From UHGV virus genome UHGV-0263263: a stretch of 35,981 bases of DNA; one strand, given 5' to 3'. The position numbers and the translations under genes are program-made. The notes under the pieces were generated by a model. That model saw only the letters and a program-made list of their open reading frames with translations. It was not told the origin of the DNA and did no database searches. This stretch comes from a virus. Below are positions 1,991 to 33,067 of the stretch, in pieces (position 1 is the first letter of the stretch; each line of letters starts with the position of its first letter).

Positions 1991-2006
1991 GGTCGGGATT
2001 CCGACC
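1991..2006 (+). promoter_or_regulatory. Late-element copy 1 (GGTCGGGATTCCGACC), 57 bp upstream of the holin start
   Basis: Exact 16-mer; forms a 6-bp stem with GATT loop. Followed by CGCCCGCTTACCC and TACTAT. Confidence 0.6.
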
Positions 2007-2062
2007 GGCTCGCCCGCTTACCCTCAGCCCACTACTATGATTTTCCCCACAGGGGGTGAGGC

Positions 2063-2299
2063 ATGAGGATGAATAACCTTTCAGACGTAGCGGCGGGACT
2101 GTCCTACGGTACATCTATCGGCAGCTTTGGTTACTGGTTACTGCAACTACTCGATAAAGTTAGCCCCAGCCAGTGGGCCGCCATCGGCGTTCTTGCCAGT
2201 ATTCTCTTTGGTCTGTTGACCTATCTGACCAATCTGTATTTCAAAATCAAGGATGATCGGCGTAAGGAGGCACGGGATAATGGCTTCCAGCAAGACTAA
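2063..2299 (+). CDS. Class II holin, phage 21 S21-like pinholin with dual start (M-R-M)
   Basis: 78 aa. Sequence [55 protein letters not shown] closely matches the remembered S21 sequence. Two TMDs. Two Met codons separated by an Arg codon, as in lambda S107/S105. Confidence 0.85.
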
Positions 2300-2819
2300 G
2301 CTCAGTGCTACTGTTCTGGGGCTGGTACTCGCTGGTGCACCAGCAACTGTCATTCTTGACCAGTTCCTGAACGAGAAAGAGGGAAACAGCCTAACCGCGT
2401 ACAGAGATGGTGGCGGAATCTGGACGATTTGCCGTGGTGCCACGATGGTTGATGGTAAGCCAGTGGTGCAGGGCATGAAGCTGACGCAGGCTAAATGCGA
2501 TCAGGTAAACGCCATCGAACGCAATAAGGCTCTTGCGTGGGTTGACCGCAATATCAAAGTTCCTCTGACCGAACCGCAGAAAGCCGGTATCGCATCCTTC
2601 TGTCCGTACAACATCGGACCCGGCAAATGCTTCCCGTCAACGTTCTATAAGCGAATGAATGCCGGTGACCGAAAAGGTGCATGTGAGGCGATCCGCTGGT
2701 GGATCAAAGACGGGGGCCGTGACTGTAGACTGACCAAAGGCCAGAAGAATGGCTGCTATGGTCAGGTTGAGCGCCGGGATCAGGAAAGCGCGTTAGCGTG
2801 CTGGGGGATAGACCAGTGA
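2280..2819 (+). CDS. SAR (signal-anchor-release) endolysin, T4-lysozyme fold
   Basis: AAGGAGG 9 nt before the ATG at 2280. N-terminal weakly hydrophobic SAR segment [18 protein letters not shown] followed by a lysozyme-like catalytic region. Pairs with the pinholin. Confidence 0.85.
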
Positions 2820-3178
2820 CGATAAAAGCAAAGCTGTTAGCGCTGGCCGTTCTGCTGGCGTTTTTTGTCGGTACCTTTTATGTAGGTTACCTCAAAGGGT
2901 GGTATGCGCACAGCGAGCACGTTAACAGCCAGGCAAAAGCGAAGCAGAAGAAAGCTGAGAAAGCCGTCGCCATCGGCGAGCAGAAAGCGGCGGCGGCCAG
3001 TGCAGAGGGTAAAGTGATTTACCGGACCATTTACCGAGACGTGGTGAAATATGTTAACGACCCGAATCATGTTAAGTGCGATTTTGACGATCACGCTGTG
3101 CAGCTGCGTCAGCGAGCCCTCGACGCGGCCAACTCCATCAGCGGATTTGATGCAGGAGCCGTGCAAGGGAGCGAGTAA
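2798..3178 (+). CDS. Rz-like inner-membrane spanin (i-spanin)
   Basis: N-terminal TMD (LLALAVLLAFFVGTFYVGYL) then a charged, coiled-coil-like periplasmic domain. GTG start overlaps the endolysin stop. Confidence 0.6.
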   Translation: MLGDRPVTIKAKLLALAVLLAFFVGTFYVGYLKGWYAHSEHVNSQAKAKQKKAEKAVAIGEQKAAAASAEGKVIYRTIYRDVVKYVNDPNHVKCDFDDHAVQLRQRALDAANSISGFDAGAVQGSE

Positions 3179-3293
3179 AGCTGGAACAGACAGCGACGAA
3201 GATCTGCAAGCAGACATCGAAACAGCGGAATGCCTGCGCCAGTTACGGCTGGATAAGTATCGTTGGCAAGCGTGGTACAGGGCTACGGAATAG
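3051..3293 (+). CDS. Rz1-like outer-membrane lipoprotein spanin (o-spanin), +1 frame overlapping Rz and extending past it
   Basis: MLSAILTITLCSC lipobox-like signal. Pro-rich mature part (PSTRPTPS). Position inside and after the Rz frame. Confidence 0.5.
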   Translation: MLTTRIMLSAILTITLCSCVSEPSTRPTPSADLMQEPCKGASKAGTDSDEDLQADIETAECLRQLRLDKYRWQAWYRATE

Positions 3294-3312
3294 CGTGTTT
3301 TGTTCCTCAATC

Positions 3313-3575
3313 GGGAGCGAAATTAAAACGGGTACCAATTCGGGTATCTGCCTTTTTTGTGAAAATAAAAAACAATAAATACAAATGGTTATTTATTGTG
3401 TTTTACTCCTATTATCGGCACCATCATTTCATCCAGTACCATCCCCAATCGTCCATTTTTCCTTGTTTTTCGCGGTGTTGACTGTTTTGTTTGTCCGCCG
3501 TTATCCACCTTTTACCGTTGCAATCCAAATTTAAAACGGGTACATAAACGGGTATCTGAGTTTGAGGCGGGTACC
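3313..3575. other. attP-like recombination site: arm-type direct repeats flanking a core inverted repeat
   Basis: TTAAAACGGGTAC-N5-CGGGTATCTG occurs at 3313-3340 and 3531-3558, plus GGCGGGTACC at 3566-3575. Between them is an AT-rich tract holding a perfect 10-bp inverted repeat, ACAATAAATA(3372-3381)/TATTTATTGT(3390-3399), with an 8-bp spacer. Lies directly upstream of int. Confidence 0.6.
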
Positions 3576-3576
3576 T

Positions 3577-4749
3577 ATGAAACTAAACGCACGACAGGTC
3601 GAGACGGCAAAGCCTGCCGAAAAAGACTACAAGCTGCCAGACGGTAACGGGCTTATTCTGCTGGTGAAAACCAGTGGGGCAAAATACTGGCGCTATCGCT
3701 ATACCTTCGCCGGTAAAGAAAAGATGCTGGCGCTCGGTGTGTACCCGGCTGTTTCGCTGGCGGCCGCTCGCGAAAAGCGAGACGAGGCCAGGCGGAACGT
3801 TGCAGCAGGTGTTGACCCGGTGAAGGTCAAAAGCCATGTTGCAGCTGCGGCAGCAAAGACGATCACGTTTAAAGAGATTGCCGCAGAATGGCACGAATTC
3901 AAGAAGCCGCGCTGGTCGCCTGGCTATGCCTCTGACATTCTCGAAGCGTTCAACAAAGATATTTTCCCAGCTGTGGGTAAGCTGCCAGTTGCTGAAATCG
4001 AACCGGTTCAGATGCTGGCGGCACTGCGCAAAATTGAGAATCGCGGCGCAACCGAGAAAGCAGCCAAAACGCGCCGGTGGTGCGGTGAAGTATTCAGCTA
4101 TGCAGTTGCGACCGGGCGCGCGAAGTATAACCCCGTCAGCGAACTGAACAGTGCCATGACCGGCCATAAGGGGGAGTCCTTTCCCTTCCTGACGGCTGAA
4201 GAACTGCCCGATTTTCTGGCGGCGCTTGAAGGTTACAAGGGGAGTCCGTTCCCCCGGTTGGGTTTGCAGATCATGATGCTGGCAGGGCTGCGTACTTACG
4301 AACTGCGGCATTCAAAATGGGAATGGGTAGATTTCGATAACCGGCTGTGGGAGATACCTGCCGAATTTATGAAGATGGACCGCCCGCACCTGGTACCGCT
4401 TTCCGATCAGCTTGTTGTATTGCTGAAAGAGTTGCACGGTCTGACAGGTCGATACGTGAATATGTTCCCCGGCAGGAATGACCCGTCAAAGGTAATGAGC
4501 GAGAACACAATAAACAGGATGATCCACACGCTGGGATATAAGGGGAGGGTAGTAGGGCATGGCTTCCGGCATACATTCAGCACCATCCTGAACGATAAAG
4601 GATTCAACTCAGACTGGGTTGAACTCCAGATCGCTCACGTGGATAAGAACAATATACGCGGGGTTTATAACCATGCCCTGTATATGGAAGGGCGTCGGGA
4701 GATGATGCAGTGGTATGCGGATCATATTGACCAGCTGCGTTTGATTTAA
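3577..4749 (+). CDS. int: Tyrosine integrase, P4-like family (DUF4102 N-terminal arm-binding domain plus catalytic domain)
   Basis: 390 aa. N-terminus MKLNARQVETAKPAEKDYKLPDGNGLILLVKTSGAKYWRYRY is typical of P4-type integrases. C-terminal R...HGFRHT...Y catalytic residues. Confidence 0.9.
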   Translation: MKLNARQVETAKPAEKDYKLPDGNGLILLVKTSGAKYWRYRYTFAGKEKMLALGVYPAVSLAAAREKRDEARRNVAAGVDPVKVKSHVAAAAAKTITFKEIAAEWHEFKKPRWSPGYASDILEAFNKDIFPAVGKLPVAEIEPVQMLAALRKIENRGATEKAAKTRRWCGEVFSYAVATGRAKYNPVSELNSAMTGHKGESFPFLTAEELPDFLAALEGYKGSPFPRLGLQIMMLAGLRTYELRHSKWEWVDFDNRLWEIPAEFMKMDRPHLVPLSDQLVVLLKELHGLTGRYVNMFPGRNDPSKVMSENTINRMIHTLGYKGRVVGHGFRHTFSTILNDKGFNSDWVELQIAHVDKNNIRGVYNHALYMEGRREMMQWYADHIDQLRLI

Positions 4750-7042: not shown

Positions 7043-7052
7043 AGGGATTACC

Positions 7053-7532
7053 TCAGAGTGAGCTGGCAAACTCTCCTGCGTAAAGCTCCGCGCCTTTGGC
7101 GTAAGCCTCTGCTGCCTGCTCTTTTGTGGGGAAATACCCGAGGCTTTTAACTCGTCCTCGGATTACGATTTTTGCCTGCCACGGCTTTCGCGGGCAATTA
7201 GGGTGAAACACAACGCCTTTGAAACCGGATGTGTTGTGCCTACGCTTGGCAATGTTGTATTGATTCTGGGCGTTATTGCAGACTCTAAGATTTTCAATCC
7301 TGCAATCGCGCGGGTCGCGGTTTATGTGGTCCAGCATTGGCGGTATAACGCCGTGGTGGTAGAGCCAGACGAGTTGATGTAGGTAGTAGGTCTTTCTACC
7401 GATAGTAGTTGCCAGATACCGCTGATTCTTACCCGTACCGTGCCACGGGTAGGGCTTACGGCCGCCAACACGACGCAATAGCCCCGTCGGCGGTTCGTAG
7501 ACGAACAGCTCTTTAACTTCATCCTGTGTCAT
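7053..7532 (-). CDS. HNH endonuclease with AP2 DNA-binding domain (homing-endonuclease-like)
   Basis: HQLVWLYHHGVIPPMLDHINRDPRDCRIENLRVCNNAQN (HNH_3) followed by a FKGVVFHPN...WQAKI AP2-like segment. Confidence 0.8.
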   Translation of the reverse strand: MTQDEVKELFVYEPPTGLLRRVGGRKPYPWHGTGKNQRYLATTIGRKTYYLHQLVWLYHHGVIPPMLDHINRDPRDCRIENLRVCNNAQNQYNIAKRRHNTSGFKGVVFHPNCPRKPWQAKIVIRGRVKSLGYFPTKEQAAEAYAKGAELYAGEFASSL

Positions 7533-7535
7533 AAC

Positions 7536-9596: not shown

Positions 9597-9635
9597 ACTC
9601 AATCCTCGCGGGTGCTTTGCGAAAAGGGACGCTCT

Positions 9636-9664: not shown

Positions 9665-9673
9665 GGGGAAGGG

Positions 9674-10222: not shown

Positions 10223-10237
10223 GGAGTCGTTCCTTAA

Positions 10238-12888: not shown

Positions 12889-12929
12889 ATTGCTTAACCC
12901 GAAAATGCATTGAATTAAGCGATAACGCA

Positions 12930-12959
12930 TTTATATGCTAACTCGCATTATCCGGTCAA
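12930..12959 (-). promoter_or_regulatory. PL-like sigma70 promoter for the leftward early operon
   Basis: Minus strand TTGACC (12959-12954), 18-bp spacer, TATAAA (12935-12930). Flanked by ATGCAT/ATGCGTTATCGC operator-like repeats. Confidence 0.6.
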
Positions 12960-12980
12960 CCCAAAAATGCATTATATCGC

Positions 12981-13029: not shown

Positions 13030-13707
13030 TTAAGGACGCCATAGCGACGATTTAGCTATGCCTGCTATATACTGGATTTTAGTGACAGAACTCTTAGGTA
13101 ATCTGATAGGAGCGTGGTTTTCGTTTACCGGGAGTAAATGGTAAAAGCCGTCGCGTTCAAAAAGAAAAGTCTTGACCATTACTTCACCCTGTTCGGTGAC
13201 TACTAGCACTTCATCTCCTGGGTGGTAACCGTGGTTAGGTTCTATTATTACGAACTCACCTTCTTTGATACGAGGTACCATAGAATCGCCAACGCATTTT
13301 AGCGCGTATACATCTGCATCATATGAAGGCCATCTGATGTGGCCATCTCCATTACCAACCGGGTATTGCATATCCGTCCAGAACCCTCCATTACCCAGCT
13401 GGGTATTACCCAATACCGGTACTTCCCTGAATTCAAAATCATAAGGGTCACCGTCCACGTCAACTACTGTTCGTGGTTTTTCGGCTTGTAGGTCGCATTC
13501 CACCAGGTCCACAGGGGAAATTTTAAAAAACTCAGCAATGTGTTTCAGGGTAATGTACTTCGGATCTTTAATCTCTCCAGCAAGCATGCGCTGCAGCGTA
13601 GACTGCTGCATTTTTACTTTTCTGGATAGCTCCGTCACGCTAGAGATACCTGCTTTCTCCATTAGGTATTTGATGTTTTTCTGAACAACATCGTATTCGT
13701 ATGCCAT
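13030..13707 (-). CDS. CI-like repressor: N-terminal HTH (XRE) plus C-terminal S24 LexA-like autopeptidase
   Basis: HTH SSVTELSRKVKMQQSTLQRMLAG. C-terminal GDSM (Ser nucleophile) ... K dyad and an Ala-Gly-like cleavage region. Confidence 0.85.
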   Translation of the reverse strand: MAYEYDVVQKNIKYLMEKAGISSVTELSRKVKMQQSTLQRMLAGEIKDPKYITLKHIAEFFKISPVDLVECDLQAEKPRTVVDVDGDPYDFEFREVPVLGNTQLGNGGFWTDMQYPVGNGDGHIRWPSYDADVYALKCVGDSMVPRIKEGEFVIIEPNHGYHPGDEVLVVTEQGEVMVKTFLFERDGFYHLLPVNENHAPIRLPKSSVTKIQYIAGIAKSSLWRP

Positions 13708-13719
13708 GTCATTGAATCC

Positions 13720-13756
13720 TTGTTCGTTTAATGAACAAATATGCGTTATTGCATAT
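13720..13756. promoter_or_regulatory. Operator palindromes in the divergent repressor/cro control region
   Basis: TTGTTCGTTTAATGAACAA (13720-13738, one mismatch) directly abutting ATATGCGTTATTGCATAT (13739-13756, perfect 6-bp arms). The ATGCGTTAT half-site recurs at PL. Confidence 0.55.
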
Positions 13757-13848
13757 TTTAGCGCGTTTATTTAAAGCGTTTCTGGGTTGTTTATCAATGC
13801 GTTTTCGGATAGATTTGCTTCATAACATAAACGATGGAGCATTTCGCC

Positions 13849-14049
13849 ATGATTGAGTTAACTCCTAAAGACATGGTTCAGTCCCTGATTGATGCAGGGT
13901 ACACCCAAAGCCAGATTGCCGAAGCTACCGGTGTAGCGCAATCCTCAATTTGCCGACTGCTTACTGGTGTGCATACAGATCCGCGCATATCTACCGTCAG
14001 GGCTTTAGAGAATATGCTGCGTACCGTCGGCGAATCCAAAAAGGCGTAA
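13849..14049 (+). CDS. Cro-like HTH regulator
   Basis: 66 aa from the ATG at 13849 (GGAG SD); the listed ORF starts at 13834. HTH QSQIAEATGVAQSSICRLL. Divergent from the repressor. Confidence 0.6.
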   Translation: MIELTPKDMVQSLIDAGYTQSQIAEATGVAQSSICRLLTGVHTDPRISTVRALENMLRTVGESKKA

Positions 14050-14052
14050 CCC

Positions 14053-16221
14053 ATGCCAGAGAAAAAGATCTGGGGGGCGACGCCTGACGAATGGTTCCAC
14101 TTCGATCTGGTGCTGGGGCGTACTGACCAGCTGCTGCCGGTCGTGTGTAACCCGGGCGCGACCATATCCCCGAATAGCAAACTCAAAATGCTTGGCAAAA
14201 CGCCAAGCCTGTATAACCGCGACCGACTGGCTACCGGCATTGCTCAGTGGACCGAGCATGTTGTTACTGAGCATGACTTTGCCCGCTGGTCTAACGAACC
14301 GGATTACGGCATCTGCGTGCGCACGGGCCACGGCTGGCTGGCGCTGGACTGCGACAGCGAAGACGAAGATATCCAGGCCGATATTCACAAAACGCTGGTG
14401 CAGCTGCTGGGCGAGCTGCCGCCGCGTCGCTGGCGCGCTAACAGCAACAAATGCCTGTACCTGCTGGCCGTTGACGGCGATTTTCGTAAGCGCATCCACC
14501 GTCTGGCGGGTGATATGGGGATTATCGAGCTGCTGGCGAACGGCCAACAGTTCGTTGCCTGCGGTACGCACAGCAGCGGCTCACGTATTGAATGGGACGG
14601 CGGTCTGCCGGACGAGCCACCAGCCATAACAGCTGACCAGCTCGAAACGCTGTGGCAGCGCCTGGCGGATCAGCTGCCTGTGTCGGTCACCACCGAAGCG
14701 GGCAGCACGAAGATGCGCGACCGCTCAACGTTCACACCCGGTGCGACGGACGATACTGCCGATTACCTCGACGCCCATGGCTGGACGCTGCTTGATGGCG
14801 CGAACGGTGAGCGCTATATCCGCTGCCCGTTTGAGGACGGCCACAGCACCGGTGGCGACCCGACCAGTACGGTTTACTTTCCGGGTGGTACCGCGGGCTT
14901 TGAGCAGGGGCATTTTAAGTGCCTGCATGCCAGCTGCGCGCACCGCGATGACGGTGATTTCCTTAATGCCATCGGGATCCGCAACGACGATTTCGAAGAC
15001 CTGACCAGCACCGACGTTGCAGAGCCATTACCGCTGCCGGCGTTCGAGCGCGATAAGTGGGGCCGCATCGAGGCCACCATCAGCAACGCGGCCAAAGCGG
15101 TTGTGCGTCCTGACTTCGTGGACATCGATATCCGCTTCGACCAGTTCCGCGACGAAATCATGTTCGCCCAGGCGGGATCCGGCCAGTGGCAGGCATTCAC
15201 CGATGCGGACTATGCGCGCCTGCGCATCACGATGGAAAAGCGCGGCTTTAAACCTGTAGGGCGCGAGCTCATCCGCGACGTGGTGCTGCTGGCCGCTGAC
15301 GAACAGCCATTTGATTCGGCTACTACCTGGCTGAACGGGCTGGAGTGGGACGGCGTGCCGCGCATCGAATCTTTCTACCACACACACTTCGGTACCGCTG
15401 ACACGCCATACACCCGCGCGGTGTCCATGTACATGTGGACCGCGCTGGCGGGCAGGGTGCTGGAGCCCGGCGTTAAAGCCGATATGGTGCCGATCCTCGT
15501 CGGGCCGCAGGGCTGCGGTAAGTCCTCCGGCGTGGAGGCTTTATCACCCGACCCGGCATTCTTCACCGAGATCTCATTCGCTGAGAAAGACGACGACCTC
15601 GCACGTAAGATGCGCGGGCGCCTGGTGGCGGAGATAGGCGAGCTGCGTGGCCTCAACACCAAAGAGCTGGAAAGCATCAAGGCCTTCGTGACGCGCACGC
15701 ATGAGAACTGGATCCCTAAATACCGGGAGTTCGCTACCCAGTTCCCGCGTCGGCTGGTGTTCGTCGGTACCACTAACGAGGACGAATTCCTCGCTGACAA
15801 GACCGGTAACCGCCGGTGGTTGCCCGTGGAGGTGTCGAAAGTCGACGTGAAAGCGATAAAAACCGACCTCCTTTTGCTGTGGGCGGAGTCCCGCGAGACG
15901 TTTAAGCGTCTCGGCGGTATCCAGTTCCGCGATGCTGAGCGGCTCGGTGCGAGTGTCCATGAGCAGTACACCATTAAGGACGCTTGGCTCGAGACGGTAG
16001 AGAAGTGGCTCGACACGCCTGACCTGATGACTAACGACATTCCGCGAAATTGCGAATTTTTACGCGCTAGCGACGTTCTGCGCGATGCGATTGGCTTAAA
16101 CCCTGAGAAGGTATCAAGACGCGAACAAATGCGAATTAGCGGAGTTTTGCAAAATTGCGGGTATAAGGCCAGCCGCGAAACCATTAATGGTAAGCAACAG
16201 CGGGTTTTTATTAAGCAATAG
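14053..16221 (+). CDS. Primase-helicase: N-terminal prim-pol-like primase with zinc-binding CxxH..C..C region, C-terminal P-loop NTPase (VirE / P4-alpha-like)
   Basis: 722 aa. Cys/His cluster CPFEDGHSTGG...HFKCLHASCAHRDDGD. Walker A VGPQGCGKSS. Followed immediately by the iteron origin. Confidence 0.8.
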   Translation: MPEKKIWGATPDEWFHFDLVLGRTDQLLPVVCNPGATISPNSKLKMLGKTPSLYNRDRLATGIAQWTEHVVTEHDFARWSNEPDYGICVRTGHGWLALDCDSEDEDIQADIHKTLVQLLGELPPRRWRANSNKCLYLLAVDGDFRKRIHRLAGDMGIIELLANGQQFVACGTHSSGSRIEWDGGLPDEPPAITADQLETLWQRLADQLPVSVTTEAGSTKMRDRSTFTPGATDDTADYLDAHGWTLLDGANGERYIRCPFEDGHSTGGDPTSTVYFPGGTAGFEQGHFKCLHASCAHRDDGDFLNAIGIRNDDFEDLTSTDVAEPLPLPAFERDKWGRIEATISNAAKAVVRPDFVDIDIRFDQFRDEIMFAQAGSGQWQAFTDADYARLRITMEKRGFKPVGRELIRDVVLLAADEQPFDSATTWLNGLEWDGVPRIESFYHTHFGTADTPYTRAVSMYMWTALAGRVLEPGVKADMVPILVGPQGCGKSSGVEALSPDPAFFTEISFAEKDDDLARKMRGRLVAEIGELRGLNTKELESIKAFVTRTHENWIPKYREFATQFPRRLVFVGTTNEDEFLADKTGNRRWLPVEVSKVDVKAIKTDLLLLWAESRETFKRLGGIQFRDAERLGASVHEQYTIKDAWLETVEKWLDTPDLMTNDIPRNCEFLRASDVLRDAIGLNPEKVSRREQMRISGVLQNCGYKASRETINGKQQRVFIKQ

Positions 16222-16396
16222 ACAACCTGTAGACAACCTTCAGCGATAGGTTGTCTACAAAAACCTTATTGATATTTAAAGGAAAAAACAACCTAGACAA
16301 CCTAGACAACCTTTTTACTAAAAACCCCATATATATATATAAGTCGATTTAGGGAAAGGTTTAGAAATGGTTGTCTAGGTTGTCACAGGTTGTCTA
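16219..16396. repeat. Putative replication origin: (T)AGACAACCT iterons in direct and inverted orientation flanking an (AT)6 tract
   Basis: Direct copies at 16219-16228, 16230-16239 and a tandem 16288-16312. Inverted copies (AGGTTGTCT) at 16248-16257, 16369-16376, 16377-16384 and 16387-16396. ATATATATATATA at 16329-16341. Confidence 0.7.
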
Positions 16397-16498
16397 CCTC
16401 TGAAATTGAAAATTATTGCGGGTAGCGATATGCAAACACGATTCGGTTCCACCACGGCGATTAACGAGCGCCAGAAGCTCAATAAAATCACTCTCTAT

Positions 16499-16520
16499 GC
16501 TCGCGCGTGCGCGCGTTTTG
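16499..16520 (+). terminator. Weak hairpin plus T4 (CGCGCG-tg-CGCGCG TTTT) upstream of the HTH gene
   Basis: Perfect GC-only 6-bp stem followed by TTTT, then the GGGGGGTGA SD of the next gene. Confidence 0.35.
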
Positions 16521-16531: not shown

Positions 16532-16807
16532 ATGCCAGTTGTCGCGACGTTCAAAACAGACTGGTTCCGGGTGATTAACGACATCACGCGCAGCGGCATT
16601 CCCCTGCAGGAGATTGCCAGAGAGCTCGACGTGTCGAAGTCTGCTATCATCGGCTGGAAGCAGGGCGCAGCACCGAACCACCACACAGGCGAAGCGCTGA
16701 TAGATTTCTGGTGCTACGTCACACAGCGCCCACGCTCCGAACTGCCAGCACAGGTCACATCACGGCGATTCGTTTACGCCTGGCGTTCTAAGCGCCTGGC
16801 GCCATGA
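16532..16807 (+). CDS. Small HTH DNA-binding protein, candidate late-gene regulator (Q-like position)
   Basis: 91 aa. HTH IPLQEIARELDVSKSAIIGWKQG. Last gene of the rightward early operon, directly upstream of the late region. Confidence 0.5.
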   Translation: MPVVATFKTDWFRVINDITRSGIPLQEIARELDVSKSAIIGWKQGAAPNHHTGEALIDFWCYVTQRPRSELPAQVTSRRFVYAWRSKRLAP

Positions 16808-17020
16808 AAACTTGCAAAAACAGGGCGTTCATCGGTTAAAACCGCTATGCAAAAACCGCCCTGTTTTATGCACGATTTATGCAGTCCATTTTCACCACTT
16901 CCAGCCAGTAAACCGCAACAAATAACCGCTTCACGCTGAATCGTTAACGAGTGCCATTTCGCTGGTGCGCGTAACGTCCATTATGTTAAATCGGCCCTGT
17001 TTTTAACAAATCTTCCATTT

Positions 17021-17036
17021 GGTCGGGATCCCGACC
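17021..17036 (+). promoter_or_regulatory. Late-element copy 2 (GGTCGGGATCCCGACC, perfect palindrome), 48 bp upstream of the first head-module gene
   Basis: Preceded by a boxA-like CTGTTTTTAACAAAT 11 nt upstream. Followed by CCCCGTTTCACAC. Confidence 0.6.
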
Positions 17037-17084
17037 GCGACCCCGTTTCACACTTACGGCTCAATCATCACAGGAGCCACCACA

Positions 17085-17504
17085 ATGGGCCGACCAAAGA
17101 AACCTATCGAAGTACCTGGGCAGGAACCTGAAACGGGCGCAGAACTGATTACAGGTACCACCGGTGAAGCCACAGCACTGGGCCCACAGCGCGCAGAGCC
17201 TGAGATTATCCAGCAGCGCGTTGCCAGTCTGCTGGACGATGCCGCACTTGCTGAGCGCAATACTCTGCTGGGTACCATCAACGAGCAGGGCGCGGCCATC
17301 ATCGCCCGCTTTGAAACGCTGGGTTACACCGACCTTGCCGACCAGCAGCTCACCGACAATATCGAATTCCTCCAGCTCGTCAAAAAAGCCACCACGGCAG
17401 AGCCTGCCGCGCCGCTGGGCTACGTGACGAACGACGAGGGCAAGCGCCAGCCGGTTACGGGTAAGCCCGTTCTGACTGAGCACGGCTGGCACGTTCCGGG
17501 CTAA
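17085..17504 (+). CDS. Hypothetical protein, first gene of the late/head module
   Basis: 139 aa. GGAG SD. No recognisable motif. Confidence 0.5.
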   Translation: MGRPKKPIEVPGQEPETGAELITGTTGEATALGPQRAEPEIIQQRVASLLDDAALAERNTLLGTINEQGAAIIARFETLGYTDLADQQLTDNIEFLQLVKKATTAEPAAPLGYVTNDEGKRQPVTGKPVLTEHGWHVPG

Positions 17505-17750: not shown

Positions 17751-19376
17751 ATGGATGAACTCGCCGTTAAGCTGATTAAGCGTTCCGACACGCTGAAAGC
17801 CAACCGCCAGCAGCATGAAAGCGTCTGGCGCGAGTGCTATGACTACACCTATCCGCTGCGCGGCGCGGGATTCTCTGACGAAGTGCTCGATGCTCAGAGC
17901 GCAAAACACAAGGTGGCGAAGCTACTGGACGGCACCGCCACCGACAGCGCCCGCATGCTGGCCTCTGCGCTCATGTCCGGCATGACCCCGGCAAACGCGC
18001 AGTGGCTGAACCTCGACAGCGAATCGCTTCCGGACGATGCCAAAGCCTGGCTGTCTGAGTGCGCAACGCTGGTCTGGGAAAATATCCATGCGGCAAACTT
18101 CGACGCCGAGGGCTACGAGGCGAATCTCGACGTGGTGTGCGCTGGCTGGTTCGTCCTGTACATCGACGAGGACCGCGAAGAGGGCGGCTACACCTTTCAG
18201 CAGTGGCCGCTGGCGCAGTGCTATGTCACGTCCACCCGCAAAGACGGCATCGTGGACACGATCTACCGCCGCTACCAGCTGACCGCAGAGCAGGCCATCA
18301 AGGAATTCGGCGCGGACAAGGTCAGCGAGAAGATCCGCGACGCGGCGAAGAAAAAGCCCGACGATAAATTTGATTTCCTGCACTGCATTTTCCCGCGCGA
18401 AACCTACATGGTCGATGCTCGCCTGGCGAAGAACATGCGCTTTGCGTCGTACAACGTCGACGTGAGCAACAAGCAGATTGTGCGTGAATCTGGCTATCAC
18501 GAATTCCCGTGTTGCGTGCCGCGCTGGATGAAAATCCCCGGCGGCTCCTACGGCATCGGCCCGGTATACGACGCGCTGCCGGACTGCAAAGAACTGAACG
18601 AAACCAAACGCATGGAGAAAGCCGCGCAGGATCTGGCTATCTCCGGCATGTGGATTGCCGAAGATGACGGCGTACTTAACCCGCGTACGGTCAAAGTCGG
18701 CCCGCGTCGCATCATCGTGGCGAACAGTGTCGAAAGCATGAAACCGCTGCTAACCGGCTCCGATTTCAGCGTGGCATTCACCGCAGAAGAGCGTTTGCAG
18801 GCATCAATCCGCAAAATCATGATGGCCGACCAGCTGCAGCCTCAGGACGGGCCAGCCATGACCGCTACCGAAGTGCATGTGCGCGTTGCACTGATTCGCC
18901 AGCTGCTCGGCCCGGTGTATGGCCGCTTCCAGGCGGAATATCTCCAGCTGCTGGTGGTGCGCTGCTTTGGCATTGCTTTCCGCGCTGGCATCTTCTCCCC
19001 GCCGCCGGAGAGCCTGCAGAACGCCAATTTCAATGTGCGTTACATCTCACCTCTGGCACGCGCCCAGAAGCTGGAAGACGTGACGGCAATCGAACGCCTC
19101 GGCGCGAACGTGGCAAACCTTGCTGGTATCAGCCAGGACGTTGTTGACCTCATCGATACCGACGAAGCCACGCGCGTTGTGGCCGATGCGCTGGGGGTTC
19201 CGGCAAAAGTAATTCGCTCTTCCGATGCTGTGGCGGACCTCCGAGACCAGCGCCAGAAAGCACAACAGCAGGCCGCTCAGCAGCAGCTCATGATGCAGGC
19301 TGGCACCGAGGCGGCTGGAGCCGCAGGGCAGACCGCTGGCGCAGCGTTAGGACAACGACTGGCAGGTAACCAATGA
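17751..19376 (+). CDS. Portal (head-tail connector) protein, T7 gp8-like
   Basis: 541 aa (T7 gp8 is 536 aa). Conserved central GSYG region and a Q/A-rich C-terminal tail. Synteny. Confidence 0.8.
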   Translation: MDELAVKLIKRSDTLKANRQQHESVWRECYDYTYPLRGAGFSDEVLDAQSAKHKVAKLLDGTATDSARMLASALMSGMTPANAQWLNLDSESLPDDAKAWLSECATLVWENIHAANFDAEGYEANLDVVCAGWFVLYIDEDREEGGYTFQQWPLAQCYVTSTRKDGIVDTIYRRYQLTAEQAIKEFGADKVSEKIRDAAKKKPDDKFDFLHCIFPRETYMVDARLAKNMRFASYNVDVSNKQIVRESGYHEFPCCVPRWMKIPGGSYGIGPVYDALPDCKELNETKRMEKAAQDLAISGMWIAEDDGVLNPRTVKVGPRRIIVANSVESMKPLLTGSDFSVAFTAEERLQASIRKIMMADQLQPQDGPAMTATEVHVRVALIRQLLGPVYGRFQAEYLQLLVVRCFGIAFRAGIFSPPPESLQNANFNVRYISPLARAQKLEDVTAIERLGANVANLAGISQDVVDLIDTDEATRVVADALGVPAKVIRSSDAVADLRDQRQKAQQQAAQQQLMMQAGTEAAGAAGQTAGAALGQRLAGNQ

Positions 19377-20429: not shown

Positions 20430-20450
20430 CATGTCACAGTTCCAACATCA

Positions 20451-20478
20451 AAAGCCAGCCTAACCCGCTGGCTTTTTC
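20451..20478 (+). terminator. Rho-independent terminator after the scaffold gene
   Basis: GCCAGC-ctaaccc-GCTGGC followed by TTTTTCATTT. Confidence 0.8.
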
Positions 20479-20482: not shown

Positions 20483-20498
20483 GGTCGGGATTCCGACC
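20483..20498 (+). promoter_or_regulatory. Late-element copy 3, immediately after the scaffold terminator and 149 bp upstream of the capsid gene
   Basis: Exact 16-mer. Followed by CCTCGCTAACAATC. Confidence 0.6.
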
Positions 20499-20646
20499 GC
20501 ACACCTCGCTAACAATCTCCCCACAACCAGCCCGGCGGGGACGCCGGATAACTGAATTTTCCCGCAGTGCGTAAGCGCCACGCGCATTGTGTTAATCGGG
20601 CCGGGCAACCGACAACCCAGCAGGCGATATTTTCTGGAGTGATTGT

Positions 20647-21559
20647 TATGTCATTTGATGCCAATAAGAACATGATTACCGCTGCGTTTATCACGCAGTT
20701 TCATGATTCTTTCGAAATCGCCGCGCAGCAGAAGGATTCCCGCCTGCAGGCTGCGGTAAACGACCGTGGGATGATTACCGGCGAAGCATTCACCATCAAC
20801 GATATGGGCACCATCGAAATGACGCAGATCACAACGCGTTTTGGTGACACCGTATGGGACCTGCCAGAAGCCGGCACCCGTAACGCGTTGATGGCGGACT
20901 ACGCTGTATTCGTCCCAGTTGAAAAACGTGACCTGCGTAAACTGCTGGCCGACCCGCAGGGGCCATATCTGCAGCTCACCCTGGCGGCCTCCAACCGCAA
21001 AAAAGACGATGTTGTTTATCGTGCTCTGCTCGACCCTGTGATGCGTAAAACGTCCAGCGGCGGTGCGTATGCACCGGTGGCGCTCCCTGCGTCGCAAAAA
21101 ATCGTTGCGGGTGGCACAGGCATGACCAAAGCCAAGCTGATCGCAGCGAAAGCGATGTTCCGCCGCAACGAGTGTGACGAGCAGAACGGTGAAGAACTGT
21201 ATATCACCTACAACGCCGACATGCTGACGCAGATCCTCAGCGATACCACGCTGACTTCTGCCGACTTCATGGCGGTGAAAATGCTGCAGGAAGGCGCAGT
21301 GTCAGGGAACTGGCTCGGCTTTAAGTGGCTGGCATACGAAAAACTGGATTCTGCGACCGCAGGCGATCCGGCCGTTACCACCAAAACCGCCGTCGCATGG
21401 TGTAAATCCGCTGTGCATTTCGGTACCGGCGCTGAGTACAACGTCGATATCGGACCACGTCGCGATAAAAACAACACCATTCAGATCTCTGTTGATGCGT
21501 CTTATGGTGCTGGCCGCGCCAACGAGAAAAAAGTCGTCGCCATCGATTTTGTTGTTTAA
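20647..21559 (+). CDS. Major capsid protein
   Basis: 303 aa. GGAG SD. Position between the scaffold and a strong terminator, as for T7 gene 10/Tphi. Flanked by a late element upstream and a terminator downstream. Confidence 0.7.
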
Positions 21560-21574: not shown

Positions 21575-21600
21575 GCCGGGGTATACCCCCGGCCTTTTTT
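21575..21600 (+). terminator. Strong rho-independent terminator after the capsid gene (T7 Tphi analogue)
   Basis: GCCGGGG-tata-CCCCGGC followed by TTTTTT. Confidence 0.85.
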
Positions 21601-25094: not shown

Positions 25095-25096
25095 CC

Positions 25097-27805: not shown

Positions 27806-30696
27806 TGCCGGTATACGCCACCCCTGAAGAACTGAATAACGGATTCACTCCGGCGGGTAATGTCCTGGCTGCACCTACCGGATTTGATGTGCCTTTGCCT
27901 GAAGGTACCAACCCGGCACCTCAGCAGGATGAGCCGTCTGTGTGGGGCGCTGCATTTCGTCAGAATAACCTGCTTGGCGAAATGTTCCGCCCGGCCAAAC
28001 AGTTTGAGCCGGTAGAGGGTTATAACCCTTATGCGGATAAAACCGAGCTGCACGGGTACGAACAGTGGGGCTCGGCGTTTGCTGATTCCCGATCGCCGGA
28101 GGAGACCGCCTGGCTGAAACAACAGATTGACGACGAAAACGAGGACCGCAGGGTACTTTCCGAGGCGGGCGGCGAAGGTGTCCTTGCCAGCATTGCAGCC
28201 GGAGTGGTAGACCCTGTCACCGTAGCTTCCATGTTTATCCCCGGTGCGCAGGGCGGCGCGGTTGCCCGTATCGCGTCGCAGGCTGCAATCGGTGCAGCTG
28301 CAACAGCAGCGAGCGAGGTTGTCCTGAATAACCAGCAGATCACCCGCACATGGGGCGAAAGTGCTTCCCACGTGGCAGCCGGTGCGTTGATGAGCGGTGT
28401 ATTTGCAGCAGCCGGCGCAGCGCTGTCACCCTCTGTTCGCACTGCTGCCACGCGCGAAGTGGCTGATGCGCTCGATAATATGAGTATCACGTCAGCGACG
28501 GACACCGCTGCTGCATCGCTCCCCGAAGGAGGTAGCGTCGGCGCGGCGAGAATCAGTGAGGCAACGCTCGAGGATCTCACTCCGGCAGCTGGCGGTCCGG
28601 TCGGTAAACTGGCACGTAAGGCGGGCAGTTATCTGACGCCGTTTACCCGTCTTATGGAGTCACCGTCGAAAACCTCCCGCCGTACGGCGCTGGAGCTGGC
28701 GGAGAATAACTACACCCTGCAGGGTAATGCCCGGGGTATCGAGACGCCCGTCGCGGCAGAAACCCGCGTGCGCGGGTGGCGTCGTGAAGAGGCTGCCGTC
28801 GTGGTGACGAACAAACAGGCCTACAGCCAGTACAAAGCGGCTGGCGGTGACCTGAGCTTTTCACAGTTCCGTGAGGAAGTTGGCAACGCCATGCGCAGCG
28901 GCGATGTGCATGCTAATCCGGTGGTGCAGGAAGCGGCACAGGCAATGCGCACCGTGGTTAACCGGGTGAAAGTGGCGCAGCAAAAGCTTGGCCTGTTGCC
29001 GCCTGACGAGGAACTGAAAGCCATCGGTCAGGAGAGTTATTTCCCGCGCGTGTACAAAGTCGGCAAGATCGTTAACGAGCGCGATAAATTCCGCGACATG
29101 CTGGTCGACTGGTGGTCTCGCGGTGAGAAAACCATGTCTCGCGAAGAGGCTGAAATTACGGCTGATGCCACGATCAATAAAATTGTCGGCGCAAAAATAC
29201 CGCAGGATTTTGCGAACGTCTTTATGGTGAAAGCGGCTGGCAGCACCCGGTCGCGTACGCTCAGCGTTCCCGATCGCCTGATGAAAGATTATCTGGAGAG
29301 CGACGCCAATTATGTGCTGCAGCGTCATATCCGCGAGGCGTCAGCAGAGGTTGAGCTGACGCGCGCATTCGGTAATAAATCGCTGGAAAAGCAGCTCAAG
29401 GATATTCAGGATGAATACGATGCGCTGATGCGCCAGAACCCCAAAGACCAGGCGAAGCTGGCGAAAGCCCGCGATAACGATATTCGCGACATCACAGCGC
29501 TGCGCGACCGCCTGGCGGGTACCTACGGCATGCCGGACGATCCATCATCATTTTTCGTACGCGCCGGTGCGTTCCTTCGCAGCGCTAACTTTGTCACCAA
29601 GCTGGGCGGTATGACCGTTTCCGCTATTCCTGATCTCGCGCGTGGTGTGATGGTTAACGGGTTTGGCAATACCATGCGCGGTTACTCTGCGCTGATAACC
29701 CGGTCGCCGGCATTCAAGGCTAGTCGCGCCGAACAGTTAAAAATGGCCGTCGGGCTGGAGACCATACTCCATACCCGTGCGCGTACGATGGGGGACCTGG
29801 TGGACAGTTCCGCACGAACCACGGCGGTAGAAGCGGGTATGGAGCGCGTCACCGATGCGTTCGGCAAGCTCACGCTGATGGGCCACTTCGACGATATGAA
29901 CAAATCTGTAAACGGCATGATCACCTCCGACGGCATTTTGTCCGGCGCGTTCACTGGCCGCCGCCTTGCCAAGCTCGGCATTAACGACAATATGGCCGCG
30001 CGTATCCGCAGCGAATTCGAAAAGCACGGCGAGGTAATCAATGGCTGGCATATCGGCAATTTTGAAAAATGGGACGATCAGCATGTGGCTGGTGTCTTCC
30101 AGTCGGCGGTGCTCAAAGACGTTAACAATACCGTTATCACACCGGGGATCGGCGATACACCACTGTGGGCCAGCACGCCGCTGGGTAAAACTATCTTCCA
30201 GTTTAAATCGTTCGCTACCGCGTCCTACAACCGTGCAACGCTGGGCGGCCTGCAGGAAGGAACCGGTCAGTTTTATTACGGTACCGCTTTCCAGATTGGC
30301 CTCGGCGCACTGACGTACGCGCTGAAACAGTCTGCAAACGGTAAAGAGGTTGACTGGTCGCCTCAGAAACTCGCCATTGAAGGTATCGACCGTTCCGGTA
30401 TTCTCGGCCCTCTGATGGAATATAACAACATGGCAGAAAAAGCCTCCGGTGGTATGGTGGGGTTGGGTGCACTGCTAGGTACCGGAACACAGTCACGTTA
30501 TGCCAGCCGTGGTTTTATCGGCTCTGCGCTTGGGCCAACGTTCGGCCTGCTCGATACCGTTACCGATGTGACCGCTGGCGTGCTCAACGGTGATGCTGGC
30601 GATCGGGTACTGCATAACGTGCGTACGCTGCTGCCGGGTAATAATCTTTTCTGGATAGCACCGCTGATAAATCAGGTTGATCCCGGTATGAAATAA
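27805..30696 (+). CDS. Internal virion core protein (T7 gp15/gp16-like large ejection protein)
   Basis: 963 aa. ATG overlaps the upstream stop (TAATG). Synteny. Confidence 0.6.
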   Translation: MPVYATPEELNNGFTPAGNVLAAPTGFDVPLPEGTNPAPQQDEPSVWGAAFRQNNLLGEMFRPAKQFEPVEGYNPYADKTELHGYEQWGSAFADSRSPEETAWLKQQIDDENEDRRVLSEAGGEGVLASIAAGVVDPVTVASMFIPGAQGGAVARIASQAAIGAAATAASEVVLNNQQITRTWGESASHVAAGALMSGVFAAAGAALSPSVRTAATREVADALDNMSITSATDTAAASLPEGGSVGAARISEATLEDLTPAAGGPVGKLARKAGSYLTPFTRLMESPSKTSRRTALELAENNYTLQGNARGIETPVAAETRVRGWRREEAAVVVTNKQAYSQYKAAGGDLSFSQFREEVGNAMRSGDVHANPVVQEAAQAMRTVVNRVKVAQQKLGLLPPDEELKAIGQESYFPRVYKVGKIVNERDKFRDMLVDWWSRGEKTMSREEAEITADATINKIVGAKIPQDFANVFMVKAAGSTRSRTLSVPDRLMKDYLESDANYVLQRHIREASAEVELTRAFGNKSLEKQLKDIQDEYDALMRQNPKDQAKLAKARDNDIRDITALRDRLAGTYGMPDDPSSFFVRAGAFLRSANFVTKLGGMTVSAIPDLARGVMVNGFGNTMRGYSALITRSPAFKASRAEQLKMAVGLETILHTRARTMGDLVDSSARTTAVEAGMERVTDAFGKLTLMGHFDDMNKSVNGMITSDGILSGAFTGRRLAKLGINDNMAARIRSEFEKHGEVINGWHIGNFEKWDDQHVAGVFQSAVLKDVNNTVITPGIGDTPLWASTPLGKTIFQFKSFATASYNRATLGGLQEGTGQFYYGTAFQIGLGALTYALKQSANGKEVDWSPQKLAIEGIDRSGILGPLMEYNNMAEKASGGMVGLGALLGTGTQSRYASRGFIGSALGPTFGLLDTVTDVTAGVLNGDAGDRVLHNVRTLLPGNNLFWIAPLINQVDPGMK

Positions 30697-30733
30697 GTAG
30701 CAATATCCGGTAAAACAAAACACGGTGATAAAA

Positions 30734-31054
30734 ATGCGCAAACTTTCTTTTATGTTAACTGGGTTTATTCTGGCCTACTCAACTGTCGCGAGTGCTACGG
30801 TATTTGGTGGCTCGAATCTAGGCTTTAGTGGTTATCCTGAGTTTTCGGATTCGGAGCCGACACCTCCTTATGATCGCAATGAATATTCAATGCAAGCGTA
30901 TAAAAGTGAGGTTGAAAGGTATATCCAAAATGCGAAGGATTATACCGAAAACGCTGGTAACGATATGAAACGTATTCAGGAATCCCAGGACGATGCGATT
31001 CAAAAAGCAAACCGCGTTGTAGAGGAATATAACCAAACAGCAAGGGGGTATTAA
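30734..31054 (+). CDS. AT-rich moron: secreted/periplasmic small protein with Sec signal peptide
   Basis: MRKLSFMLTGFILAYSTVASA|TV signal peptide. Lower GC than its neighbours. Inserted between the core-protein and terminase genes. Confidence 0.55.
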   Translation: MRKLSFMLTGFILAYSTVASATVFGGSNLGFSGYPEFSDSEPTPPYDRNEYSMQAYKSEVERYIQNAKDYTENAGNDMKRIQESQDDAIQKANRVVEEYNQTARGY

Positions 31055-31056
31055 TC

Positions 31057-31072
31057 GGTCGGGATTCCGACC
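31057..31072 (+). promoter_or_regulatory. Late-element copy 4, 46 bp upstream of the terminase small subunit gene
   Basis: Exact 16-mer starting 3 nt after the moron stop codon. Confidence 0.6.
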
Positions 31073-31118
31073 TTAAACCCACGCCATCATAGCCCTGTAT
31101 TCACTACGGGGCTTTTTT

Positions 31119-31460
31119 ATGCATCAGGATTACAAAACACGCCTTACCGCACTGAGTGATAAACTCACCGATGTGGTGCTCGAAGAAGCCGATCCGGAAA
31201 ACTGGCCGGGGGCGGGAAAGAAACCGAGCGAACTGACCAAGGATGAACGTGGCGATCGCTACTGGGATAAGAAGAACGCAGCCGCATCCCTGACGCTGCT
31301 GATTAAGGTTCACTCCCTGATTGGCATGCAAACGCGCGGCGGTACGCCATCCGATAATCCCGGTCAGGATGATGAAGCCTTTGCGCTGGGCAAGCAGGTT
31401 TCAAAAGCTGAGCGAGAGGCGGCCGCCATTATTGAGCGCCTGCAGAAAGGGAAAAAATGA
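31119..31460 (+). CDS. Terminase small subunit (candidate)
   Basis: 113 aa, charged. Directly upstream of, and overlapping, the large terminase gene. No SD; preceded by a hairpin plus T6. Confidence 0.45.
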   Translation: MHQDYKTRLTALSDKLTDVVLEEADPENWPGAGKKPSELTKDERGDRYWDKKNAAASLTLLIKVHSLIGMQTRGGTPSDNPGQDDEAFALGKQVSKAEREAAAIIERLQKGKK

Positions 31461-33067
31461 TTTCGTTCCTCGCCTTCTTCTTAATGTGGGCGGAGCGAAT
31501 GAACTGGGACGTTCCGGACTGCCACTATCAGGCCTGCCACTGGCTGGAGCATCGCGGAAATCTCGCGGTGCTTCGCTGTTTCCGTGGTTTCGGTAAATCA
31601 ACGATCCTCGCTGTCTATAACGCCTGGCGGTATTACTGTGATCGCCAGTACCGCATTCTGCATCAGTCTGAATCAGACGGAACCGCGTATAAAACCAGCC
31701 GTGACACTCAGAACGTCCTGCGTAACCATCCGCTGACCAAAGGCATGCTTCCTGACGGGCAGGGAACCGTTGAGCAATGGTGGGTTAATGGTGCGCTGGA
31801 TTTACGTAACGGCAGCATGTACGCAAAAGGCATCCTGTCTAACGTAACCTCAGCGCGCGCCAACGAATGCCAGAACGACGACGTAGAGGTACCACGTAAT
31901 ATCCAGACTCCGGAGGCACGCGAAAAGCTGCGCTATCGCCTGGGAGAGCAAACCCACATCCTGATCCCCGGCGGACGCAAACTTTATATCGGTACACCGC
32001 ACACGCATGACAGCCTTTATGATGAGGTGGAGTCTATGGGCGCCGACTGTCTTACCATCCGGTTATTTGATAAAGAAAAGCGCATTGAAGCGAAAGAGGC
32101 CTCGCAGCTGCGCTACGCAGTGCCTTTTCGCCCGGATTATGTTTTTGCTGGCATCCACAAGGCGGCGCGGCTGTTGGTCGAAAACGTGGATTATAAGCTG
32201 ACCGCCGACGGCGTTGAGTTTGCGGACGCACCGGACACGGTTATCGATTTTTATGCAGACTGCGCCTGGCCTGAACGGTTCACCCGTGAAGAAATGGAGA
32301 ACCGCCGTAAAGAAACCCGCACGATTAACGAGTGGGATAGCCAGTATCAGCTGCACAGTAAACCCGTCGGAGACGTTCGCCTCGACCCTGACCGCATCCG
32401 GGAATACAACATTCATCCACAAATTCGCTATGCGAACCGTACGGCTTCGCTGTGGCTGGGTAACGTGCAAATCGTTGGTGCTGTTGCCTGGTGGGACGTG
32501 GCCACTGGCAAGGTTAAAGCTGACGCCTCTGCATTCTCTCTGATGCTTACGGATGCCAGGGGGCATTTGTACTGGCATATCTGCCAGGAGCTTACCGGGG
32601 AGCTGGCAGAGTTCGACGATAACGACAAAATCGCCGGCGGGCAGGTAGCGCAGATCAGAGAGCTGGTGCTCAAATATCAGATCCCCGTGGTTTGTGTCGA
32701 AGTAAACGGCCCGGGCAGCTTCGCGGGTAAATTACTGCGTCAGGCGCTCAAGGGGACGGGCTGCGGCGTCCGGGAAGAGTTCAGTATCACCAACAAGCAG
32801 AAACGCATCCTCGATGCGTTTGAAGCGCCGCTGTCCTCGCGGTTCCTGTGGGCTCACACCGACGTGCTCGACGGTCCTGTCTATGACCAGATGCGCGACT
32901 TTAACCCCGCACTGACCAACCAGACAGACGACTTTATCGACTCCGGCGCGGGAGCAATAAGTCAGACCCCAGTACGCATCGGGAAAGTGGTCGGGATTCC
33001 GACCGGACATACGCGCGAAGATTGGCAGTTAAGTGACGGAGATCATCTGGTCGACGTCGATTACTAA
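31457..33067 (+). CDS. Terminase large subunit (T7 gp19-like)
   Basis: 536 aa. Walker A-like FRGFGKST. C-terminal nuclease-like acidic residues. Synteny. Confidence 0.8.
   Translation: MISFLAFFLMWAERMNWDVPDCHYQACHWLEHRGNLAVLRCFRGFGKSTILAVYNAWRYYCDRQYRILHQSESDGTAYKTSRDTQNVLRNHPLTKGMLPDGQGTVEQWWVNGALDLRNGSMYAKGILSNVTSARANECQNDDVEVPRNIQTPEAREKLRYRLGEQTHILIPGGRKLYIGTPHTHDSLYDEVESMGADCLTIRLFDKEKRIEAKEASQLRYAVPFRPDYVFAGIHKAARLLVENVDYKLTADGVEFADAPDTVIDFYADCAWPERFTREEMENRRKETRTINEWDSQYQLHSKPVGDVRLDPDRIREYNIHPQIRYANRTASLWLGNVQIVGAVAWWDVATGKVKADASAFSLMLTDARGHLYWHICQELTGELAEFDDNDKIAGGQVAQIRELVLKYQIPVVCVEVNGPGSFAGKLLRQALKGTGCGVREEFSITNKQKRILDAFEAPLSSRFLWAHTDVLDGPVYDQMRDFNPALTNQTDDFIDSGAGAISQTPVRIGKVVGIPTGHTREDWQLSDGDHLVDVDY
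32989..33004 (+). promoter_or_regulatory. Late-element copy 5, inside the terL 3' end, 84 bp upstream of the tailspike gene
   Basis: Exact 16-mer. Encodes VVGIPTG within TerL. Confidence 0.5.

Follow-up and report, generated by a model that had tools for sequence, protein, structure and literature searches.

Promoters that lack a usable −35 element and rely on an activator bound beside the −10 element are well described; for instance, the pho boxes read by PhoB, the lambda promoters pRE, pI and paQ read by CII, and the middle promoters read by T4 MotA all have an activator site in place of the −35 element. Small early or middle phage proteins that switch on several late promoters are likewise familiar from Mu (C and Mor), P2 and P4 (Ogr and Delta) and P1 (Lpa), and the T7 map has a class III promoter before the capsid gene, the T-phi terminator after it and a separate tail-fibre promoter. 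Here we report on the viral genome UHGV-0263263, a stretch of 35,981 nucleotides (hereafter the window) that is a temperate podophage genome, in which a 16-bp dyad, GGTCGGGATTCCGACC or its GATC variant GGTCGGGATCCCGACC, marks every plus-strand late transcription unit. This 16-mer is very probably the upstream element of the late promoters and, on a fuller reading drawn from sequence comparison, these are probably host sigma-70 promoters at which a 91-aa phage protein would bind the dyad and activate transcription.

In its position the window element resembles the sites of PhoB, CII and MotA, which lie about 10-12 bp 5' of the −10 element, at about −40 to −25, with no usable −35, and which offer two recognition blocks about one helical turn apart; CII is also a small (97-aa) phage helix-turn-helix (HTH) activator. 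It differs in that the known sites are direct repeats or a single box whereas the window site is an inverted repeat, and none of the three proteins is related to the 91-aa protein. With lambda CII, a PDB sequence search gave only a non-significant E = 0.4-0.5, there is no Phage_CII Pfam match, and the TTGC-N6-TTGC direct repeats by which CII sites are recognised are not those of the window site; moreover, CII sets up lysogeny, whereas the window element heads virion and lysis genes. The C proteins of restriction-modification systems are recognised by a GACT...AGTC C-box together with HTH_3/XRE membership, a combination that does not take in the 91-aa protein, whose identity to them is 13-14%, whose Pfam HTH_3 match falls below threshold and whose model shows additional strands at both the N- and the C-terminus. 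C proteins activate when bound 5' of the −35 and repress when bound over it, and they govern one autoregulated operon as compared to the five target promoters of the window.

The late promoters of the Mu C and Mor, Ogr and Delta, and Lpa systems also carry a common conserved upstream site and no −35, but their regulators belong to other folds and families, with no Pfam, PHROG or NCBIfam match to the 91-aa protein, and their sites are centred at about −43.5 (Mu C and Mor), −55 (Ogr) and −22 (Lpa), against about −32.5 for the window dyad. The virion module shares with T7 its layout of promoters and a post-capsid terminator, whereas the window has neither a phage RNA polymerase nor a promoter of the ~23-bp kind, its signals being of host-polymerase type. 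The regulator gene occupies the same slot as the Q genes of lambda and APSE, last before the late genes, and APSE combines the same early module with P22-like late genes and a Q in the regulator slot. Lambda Q, however, works through a single promoter and qut site and antiterminates one long transcript, as opposed to the five separate promoters of the window, where the terminators between units appear to be respected. Activator-dependent late promoters with a common upstream site are thus a classical arrangement; the window differs from the known cases in the protein family, the sequence of the site and its position.

Results

A search of both strands found GGTCGGGATTCCGACC exactly at 1991, 20483, 31057 and 32989 and GGTCGGGATCCCGACC at 17021, with no further site in the window at up to three mismatches on either strand; the chance expectation from shuffles is 0.03 matches at two mismatches or fewer and 0.27 at three or fewer. 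All five copies are in plus orientation, the minus-strand "hits" being the same palindromes read in reverse, and none lies in a minus-strand early gene. An earlier note on this DNA had given these five coordinates, with copy 2 as the GATC variant, and had claimed a single orientation and no copy on the minus strand or within early genes; on exhaustive re-search all of this proved correct. Its further claim that each copy stands upstream of the first gene of a late module also holds, at distances of 62-165 nt. Copy 1 (1991-2006) lies 72 nt 5' of the holin ATG (2063), in the place of a lysis-cassette promoter; copy 2 (17021-17036), a perfect palindrome, precedes the first ATG of the head module (17085) by 64 nt; copy 3 (20483-20498), the best conserved among relatives, precedes the capsid ATG (20648) by 165 nt; copy 4 (31057-31072) is found 62 nt 5' of a small open reading frame (ORF) at 31119, as a probable promoter for TerS and TerL; and copy 5 (32989-33004), the tailspike copy, lies 99 nt 5' of that gene's ATG (33088) and is contained in the 3'-terminal part of the TerL reading frame (31457-33067), in which it encodes VGIPT. 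Copy 2 alone contains GATC, a Dam site within GGATCC (a BamHI site), where the other copies have GATT, and it is at copy 2 only that GATC and GATT vary among close relatives.

What lies downstream of the 16-mer is as regular as the 16-mer itself. When offsets 0 to 40 after each copy were scanned for the pattern NANNNT, it was found exactly 12 nt after the 16-mer in five of five copies and at every other offset in at most two; since NANNNT occurs at 5.3% of window positions, this gives p = 4e-7, or 1.7e-5 corrected for 41 offsets. In the sigma-70 −10 element, A at position 2 and T at position 6 are the best-conserved bases, and we infer that the hexamers, all on the plus strand, are −10 elements. 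They are TACCCT for copy 1 (2019-2024; predicted start ~2031), for which relatives have TACCCT or TAAAAT at that offset; CACACT for copy 2 (17049-17054; predicted start ~17061, ahead of the ORF at 17085); AACAAT for copy 3 (20511-20516; predicted start ~20523, followed by a 125-nt structured leader); CATCAT for copy 4 (31085-31090; predicted start ~31097, inside the 5' arm of a terminator at 31091-31113); and GAAGAT for copy 5 (33017-33022; predicted start ~33027-33029), with GAACAT or GACCAT in relatives. If the hexamer is the −10 element, the 16-mer covers about −40 to −25. The bases at the −35 place are GGATTC, a 0/6 match to TTGACA, and there is no extended −10 (TGn), the spacers of the five copies ending in gct, ttt, gct, cgc and cgc. 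The note had offered a promoter-proximal activator site as one of two readings of the element, and the fixed spacing of NANNNT fits it.

In a non-redundant set of 53 contexts, with flanks less than 70% identical to one another, conservation is confined to the 16 bp and the two hexamer bases, joined by a G+C-rich spacer of 12 nt, rarely 11. A T stands directly 5' of the 16-mer in 44 of the 53, with A/T-rich bases before it, while the base directly 3' is mostly G, and the flanks are thus asymmetric. Six nucleotides past the hexamer C is found in 39/53, and the next base is A in 26/53; a pyrimidine followed by a purine at the predicted −1/+1 fits the usual start context. The dyad consensus is RGTCRG-GAWW-CYGACC with an A/T-rich 4-nt 5' flank, and comparison of variants leaves G2, T3, A8, C11, G13 and A14 invariant, a pattern that fits two half-sites RGTCRG read independently by a dimer. 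The centre is GATT, GAAA or GAAT and its mirror image was never seen; the constant direction of this asymmetric centre and of the A/T-rich flank suggests an additional directional contact. The strand-specific function claimed in the note is accordingly supported as regards orientation, and its shared flanking words (CATwT before, CGYTWAC after) do recur, refined here to the A/T-rich 5' flank and to the spacer end with the −10-like hexamer.

The arrangement extends well beyond the window. The close relatives are E. coli prophages, one of them inserted in dusA, and the Yersinia phages YeP4 to YeP6, and the note's proposed check, that related prophages should carry the motif at the same positions, found it at the starts of the corresponding five modules. 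In the closest E. coli prophage (L001, 95% identical) all five copies sit where they do in the window, and the mosaic E. coli prophage L002, with a lambdoid early region and the same late module, has five sites, some of them AGTCAGGATTCCGACC or GGTCGGGAAACTGACC, followed after 12 nt by CACAAT, AACAAT, CATCAT, GAACAT and TACCCT. In YeP4 the form RGTCRGGAAACCGAAY precedes the head module, the capsid and tail-fibre genes and the small terminase ORF, while another form precedes the holin gene; from the head module through capsid, terminase and tail fibre to holin, the hexamers after 12 nt are CACACT, TAGCCT, GACCAT, GACCAT and TAAAAT. The holin-gene site is AGTCAGGATTCCGACC in L001 and L002 and GGTCAGGATTCCGACC in YeP4, and the fifth copy lies inside the 3' end of TerL in all three. 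Farther afield, contigs of 67% G+C have GGTCGGGAATCCGACC, 12 nt and GACACT, or GGTCGGGATTCCGACC, 12 nt and GACCAT; a 61.5% G+C contig has GGTCGAGAAACCGACC, 12 nt and GATACT; and a 44.6% G+C contig has AGTCGGGAATCCGACA with 11 nt and AAGAAT, and the identical 16-mer with 12 nt and GATCAT. Across a survey of 187 loci and 243 distinct contexts, NANNNT stands at 12 nt in 225 and at 11 nt in four, the rest being the perfect palindrome read the wrong way or lone matches in unrelated high-G+C contigs. A scan of GTDB genomes with the exact motif returned mostly single chance matches in unrelated high-G+C genomes. A search of published text with the 16-mer gave only unrelated primer matches to a 12-mer sub-string, the literature on YeP4, BcepC6B, Xfas53 and VvAW1 yielded no promoter or regulator analysis of the group, and among the papers searched we found none mentioning the motif or the 91-aa protein.

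The candidate late activator, encoded at 16532-16807 (plus strand), is a 91-aa protein with a helical HTH core of the lambda-repressor type (XRE or Cro/C1-type fold). Its homologues are 60% identical in L002, 46% in YeP4 and 35-45% in the contigs of 44-67% G+C, and in each motif-bearing phage compared its gene is the last before the T7-like head module. The early regions of these phages are of different types (polymerase-A, lambdoid and RecT/YqaJ), and no other regulator is common to them. The recognition-helix residues (SKS..GW) are invariant among close homologues, which fits a near-invariant DNA site. Because it is co-inherited with the motif, sits in a Q-like slot and has this invariant recognition helix, the 91-aa protein is the best candidate reader of the dyad; the note had already pointed to it, and co-inheritance and fold favour that choice.

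At E up to 0.001 the family comprises 836 cluster representatives. Sequence searches of Pfam, NCBIfam and the PDB gave nothing above threshold, the database names are all "hypothetical", and a BFVD fold search returned unnamed XRE proteins only. The family profile matches the Cro-like Bbp31 of BPP-1 (E = 5e-6), and the family is probably an offshoot of Cro-type proteins; BPP-1 Bbp27, in the equivalent slot, was rejected as a homologue, as it belongs to a different family and the profile matches only Bbp31. The immunity repressor was also rejected as reader of the dyad, the CI/Cro operators at 13708-13833 and 12890-12975 (ATGCRTT-type words) being unrelated to it. Two distant homologues lie in degraded or satellite-like contexts without late genes, and several others were left out as their contigs were too short. 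Two apparent exceptions with the regulator but without the motif, L068 and L032, were dropped after inspection: the L032 contig ends within an insert ahead of the first promoter, and L068 keeps only the first 53 residues of the regulator, its truncated gene being surrounded by repeated ORFs of 307 aa, apparently transposases of insertion sequences. This suggests that L068 is a decaying prophage in an insertion-sequence-rich genome, probably Sodalis; L052, L054 and L055 come from the same IMG genome.

Several side observations concern this gene. A fairly close homologue (L187-L189, 10001-10339; E = 7e-32) is carried on a P4-like or satellite-like integrative element with an integrase, Phage_ASH, AlpA and a DUF927 primase, and no late genes or dyad nearby; by analogy with P4 Delta, it might switch on the late promoters of a helper phage. 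An alternating-GC palindrome with a T-run, TCGCGCRYGCGCGCGTTT(T), lies at 16501-16519, 13-30 nt 5' of the regulator start codon, and is also present in L001, L002, L003, L052, L053, L057 and L319, being kept where early regions are unrelated and where the regulator homologue is just 38% identical; possible roles are those of a small terminator, an attenuator or an operator that times regulator expression. In the window the predicted fold pairs the upstream CACUCUCU with the GGGGGG ribosome-binding site of the regulator. In L009, L012 and L032 about 2.3-2.5 kb of unrelated DNA separates the regulator-gene terminator from the first late promoter, which looks like another cargo insertion point.

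The late units are bounded by terminators on the plus strand. The regulator gene is followed by a hairpin and U-run (16813-16872; −24.2 kcal/mol, z −3.9), a probable terminator. A second hairpin (20450-20476; −14.3 kcal/mol) ends the head-module unit 6 nt before copy 3, in keeping with the note's remark that the capsid copy comes right after a terminator, and a strong one (21575-21593) directly follows the capsid gene. No dyad precedes the tail and internal-protein genes, whose transcription must depend on read-through of 21575-21593. The long structural unit is ended by the hairpin at 31091-31113, which starts immediately after the copy-4 hexamer and is retained in L001 and L002 with compensatory changes. 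RNA beginning at ~31097 lacks its 5' arm (0 kcal/mol as compared to −13.7), so that one stretch of DNA can end transcripts arriving from upstream without blocking those that begin there. The capsid leader (20523-20647, 125 nt) is structured and highly conserved. It contains a hairpin, CCGGCG-GGGA-CGCCGG, and a block, GAATTTTCCCGCAG, and a similar block, GATTTTCCCCACAGGGGG, precedes the holin gene (2040-2062); a role of the hairpin and blocks in translation or stability control is possible. The tailspike gene, served by copy 5, is exchangeable between relatives, and minus-strand cargo genes separate the lysis cassette, with copy 1, from the other late genes.

As to the genome as a whole, a LexA-like CI repressor gene (13030-13707, minus strand) faces a Cro-like gene (13834-14049), which is followed by a primase-helicase gene (14053-16221). 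The leftward early operon encodes an exonuclease, a Gp2.5-like single-stranded DNA-binding protein, a family-A DNA polymerase, VRR-NUC and an SNF2 helicase, and an integrase gene lies at 3562-4749. This type of early module is common to APSE, BPP-1, BcepC6B and Xfas53 (PMC8579659). The T7-like late genes on the plus strand include portal (17751-19376), capsid (20648-21559), tail tube and internal virion proteins, a small ORF that is probably TerS (31119-31460) preceding TerL (31457-33067), and tailspike (33088-34782); the lysis cassette spans 2063-3300. Among the window ORFs scanned we found no RNA polymerase gene and no sigma-like gene, which agrees with the note on the lack of a phage RNA polymerase; its view of an element dedicated to late genes is likewise supported.

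Between the tailspike gene and the lysis cassette lies minus-strand cargo (600-1882 and 35128-35958), a gtrA/gtrB cassette for O-antigen conversion whose third gene is probably serotype-specific, and the plus strand has a near-consensus sigma-70 promoter, TTGACA-16-TATATT (11/12 matches), at 35015-35042. An HNH endonuclease gene (7053-7532, minus strand) between the ANR-like and DNA polymerase genes is probably a mobile homing-endonuclease insertion; L001 has no gene at that position. A 109-aa ORF (30725-31054) separates copy 4 from the last internal virion protein gene, and its N-terminus (MRKLSFMLTGFILAYSTVASA) resembles a signal peptide; the ORF is missing from L001 and replaced in L002 by an unrelated minus-strand ORF, and is probably a cargo gene. 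Between the primase-helicase and regulator genes about nine copies of a 10-mer, TAGACAACCT / AGGTTGTCTA, in both orientations at 16215-16400 flank an (AT)n run (16329-16345); they look like an iteron-type replication origin, and BcepC6B has ACGATAGGGACGATAG-type repeats at the equivalent place.

Discussion

We envisage the following scheme for the late genes. The 91-aa protein would be produced from the end of the rightward early region, and a dimer of it would bind the two half-sites, one helical turn apart, at −40 to −25; the bound dimer would then recruit host sigma-70 RNA polymerase to a promoter with only a weak −10. Five such promoters would drive the head module, the capsid, terminase and tailspike genes and the lysis cassette, units that need promoters of their own because terminators or minus-strand cargo genes block read-through. 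Both the identity of the binder and the sign of its effect, activation and not repression, we infer from context.

Several points weigh against this scheme. With its centre near −32.5, the dyad overlaps the position that sigma region 4 takes up, and in C-protein switches occupancy of an operator overlapping the −35 represses (PMC2504287). A symmetric dimer alone leaves the directional centre (GATT, GAAA, GAAT) unexplained. The 91-aa protein is without a curated family, so its function rests on context, and PHROG 16553 labels the family "transcriptional repressor". Finally, gp01 of the Burkholderia phage BcepC6B is a distant homologue (34%) in the same slot, but the 16-bp dyad is absent there, and a cognate site for gp01 was looked for and not found in that phage. 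A bolder extension, which we advance only tentatively and hold to be doubtful, is that the 91-aa family represents widespread, unrecognised late activators whose symmetric dimer occupies the −35 position, with sigma region 4 displaced, re-seated or bypassed, a PhoB-, CII- or MotA-like solution reached by an XRE fold; P4-like homologues may in that case switch on the late genes of helpers.

Among the alternatives, the one that survives best, though it is unlikely, is that the 16-mer is a late-promoter element read by something else, be it another phage product, a host factor, or a polymerase with a different or remodelled sigma. The 91-aa protein is, after all, named as binder from co-inheritance and fold, and the directional asymmetry suggests that a symmetric dimer is not the only thing in contact with the site. 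In the centre, GGAAAC or GGAATC is loosely like −35 words of the extracytoplasmic function (ECF) type, a resemblance that we presume to be a lead only. Against such a reader, the motif is kept in hosts of 44 to 67% G+C, which argues for a reader borne by the phage, and phages with different early regions share no regulator but the 91-aa protein; the ORFs scanned hold no candidate sigma or polymerase, and the hexamers resemble sigma-70 −10 elements and not ECF ones.

Somewhat less probable still is that the dyad is an operator from which the 91-aa protein, or another factor on the −35 region, represses or limits the late promoters. The overlap with the −35 position and the PHROG label point that way, as does C.Esp1396I, where it is OR occupancy over the −35 that represses (PMC2504287). 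Yet a promoter with a 0/6 match at the −35, no TG and a weak −10 (TACCCT, GAAGAT) would have little activity left to repress, the dyad is the sole conserved upstream element, with nothing besides it that might make these promoters active, and the gene stands in the slot of late activators and Q.

The note's other reading of the 16-mer was a hairpin in the RNA, a boxB-like antitermination or stability element in the late leaders, which may be widened to a processing site or to a hairpin in single-stranded DNA. Most copies could indeed form a perfect 6-bp stem (−9.5 kcal/mol), the YeP4 loop GAAA is a GNRA tetraloop, and a boxA-like word, TTTAACAA, stands ahead of copy 2. But among 21 distinct 16-mers overall pairing is 86.5%, a level that 57 of 500 shuffles also attain, as compared to 84.9% in shuffled sequences, and pairs 1-16 and 5-12 are each unpaired in six and compensated in only two. 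At functional positions AGTCAGGATTCCGACC folds at only −2.1 kcal/mol and the YeP4 terminase-site variant AGTCAGGAAACCGAAC does not fold (0 kcal/mol). Because variants break the stem as often as they compensate, and some cannot fold, the 16-mer is a DNA site; moreover, with NANNNT fixed downstream it lies 5' of the predicted start and hence would not be part of the RNA from its own promoter, and upstream of copy 1 there is a divergent minus-strand gene. The boxA-like word occurs before copy 2 only and is missing at the equivalent sites of YeP4 and L002, and an Rfam scan of the whole window found no family at threshold. We therefore reject the boxB/boxA antitermination or stability element, and consider a hairpin of any kind very improbable.

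We give hardly any credence to the idea that the repeats are mere module boundaries kept for phage recombination, packaging or replication, with no role in transcription: they do stand at points of divergence among relatives (the tailspike gene, the cargo genes and the inserts that separate regulator gene and head module), but 16 bp is short for homologous exchange, and the fixed orientation, the NANNNT spacing and the conservation in very distant phages would be left unexplained.

If the activator scheme is right, the window provides a concrete, testable late-gene regulon for temperate podophages that are common but unstudied in Enterobacterales and other Proteobacteria, in which a single small regulator, through a single 16-bp site, would control five promoters with predicted starts. 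It would indicate the likely role of a family whose members are so far listed just as "hypothetical" or "repressor", and would offer a compact inducible pair of promoter and activator, with a site kept in hosts of 44 to 67% G+C. The motif is also useful in annotating these prophages, as it marks where late operons begin and where cargo is inserted. For the biology of the group, it would show how host polymerase can run a T7-like structural module without a phage RNA polymerase.

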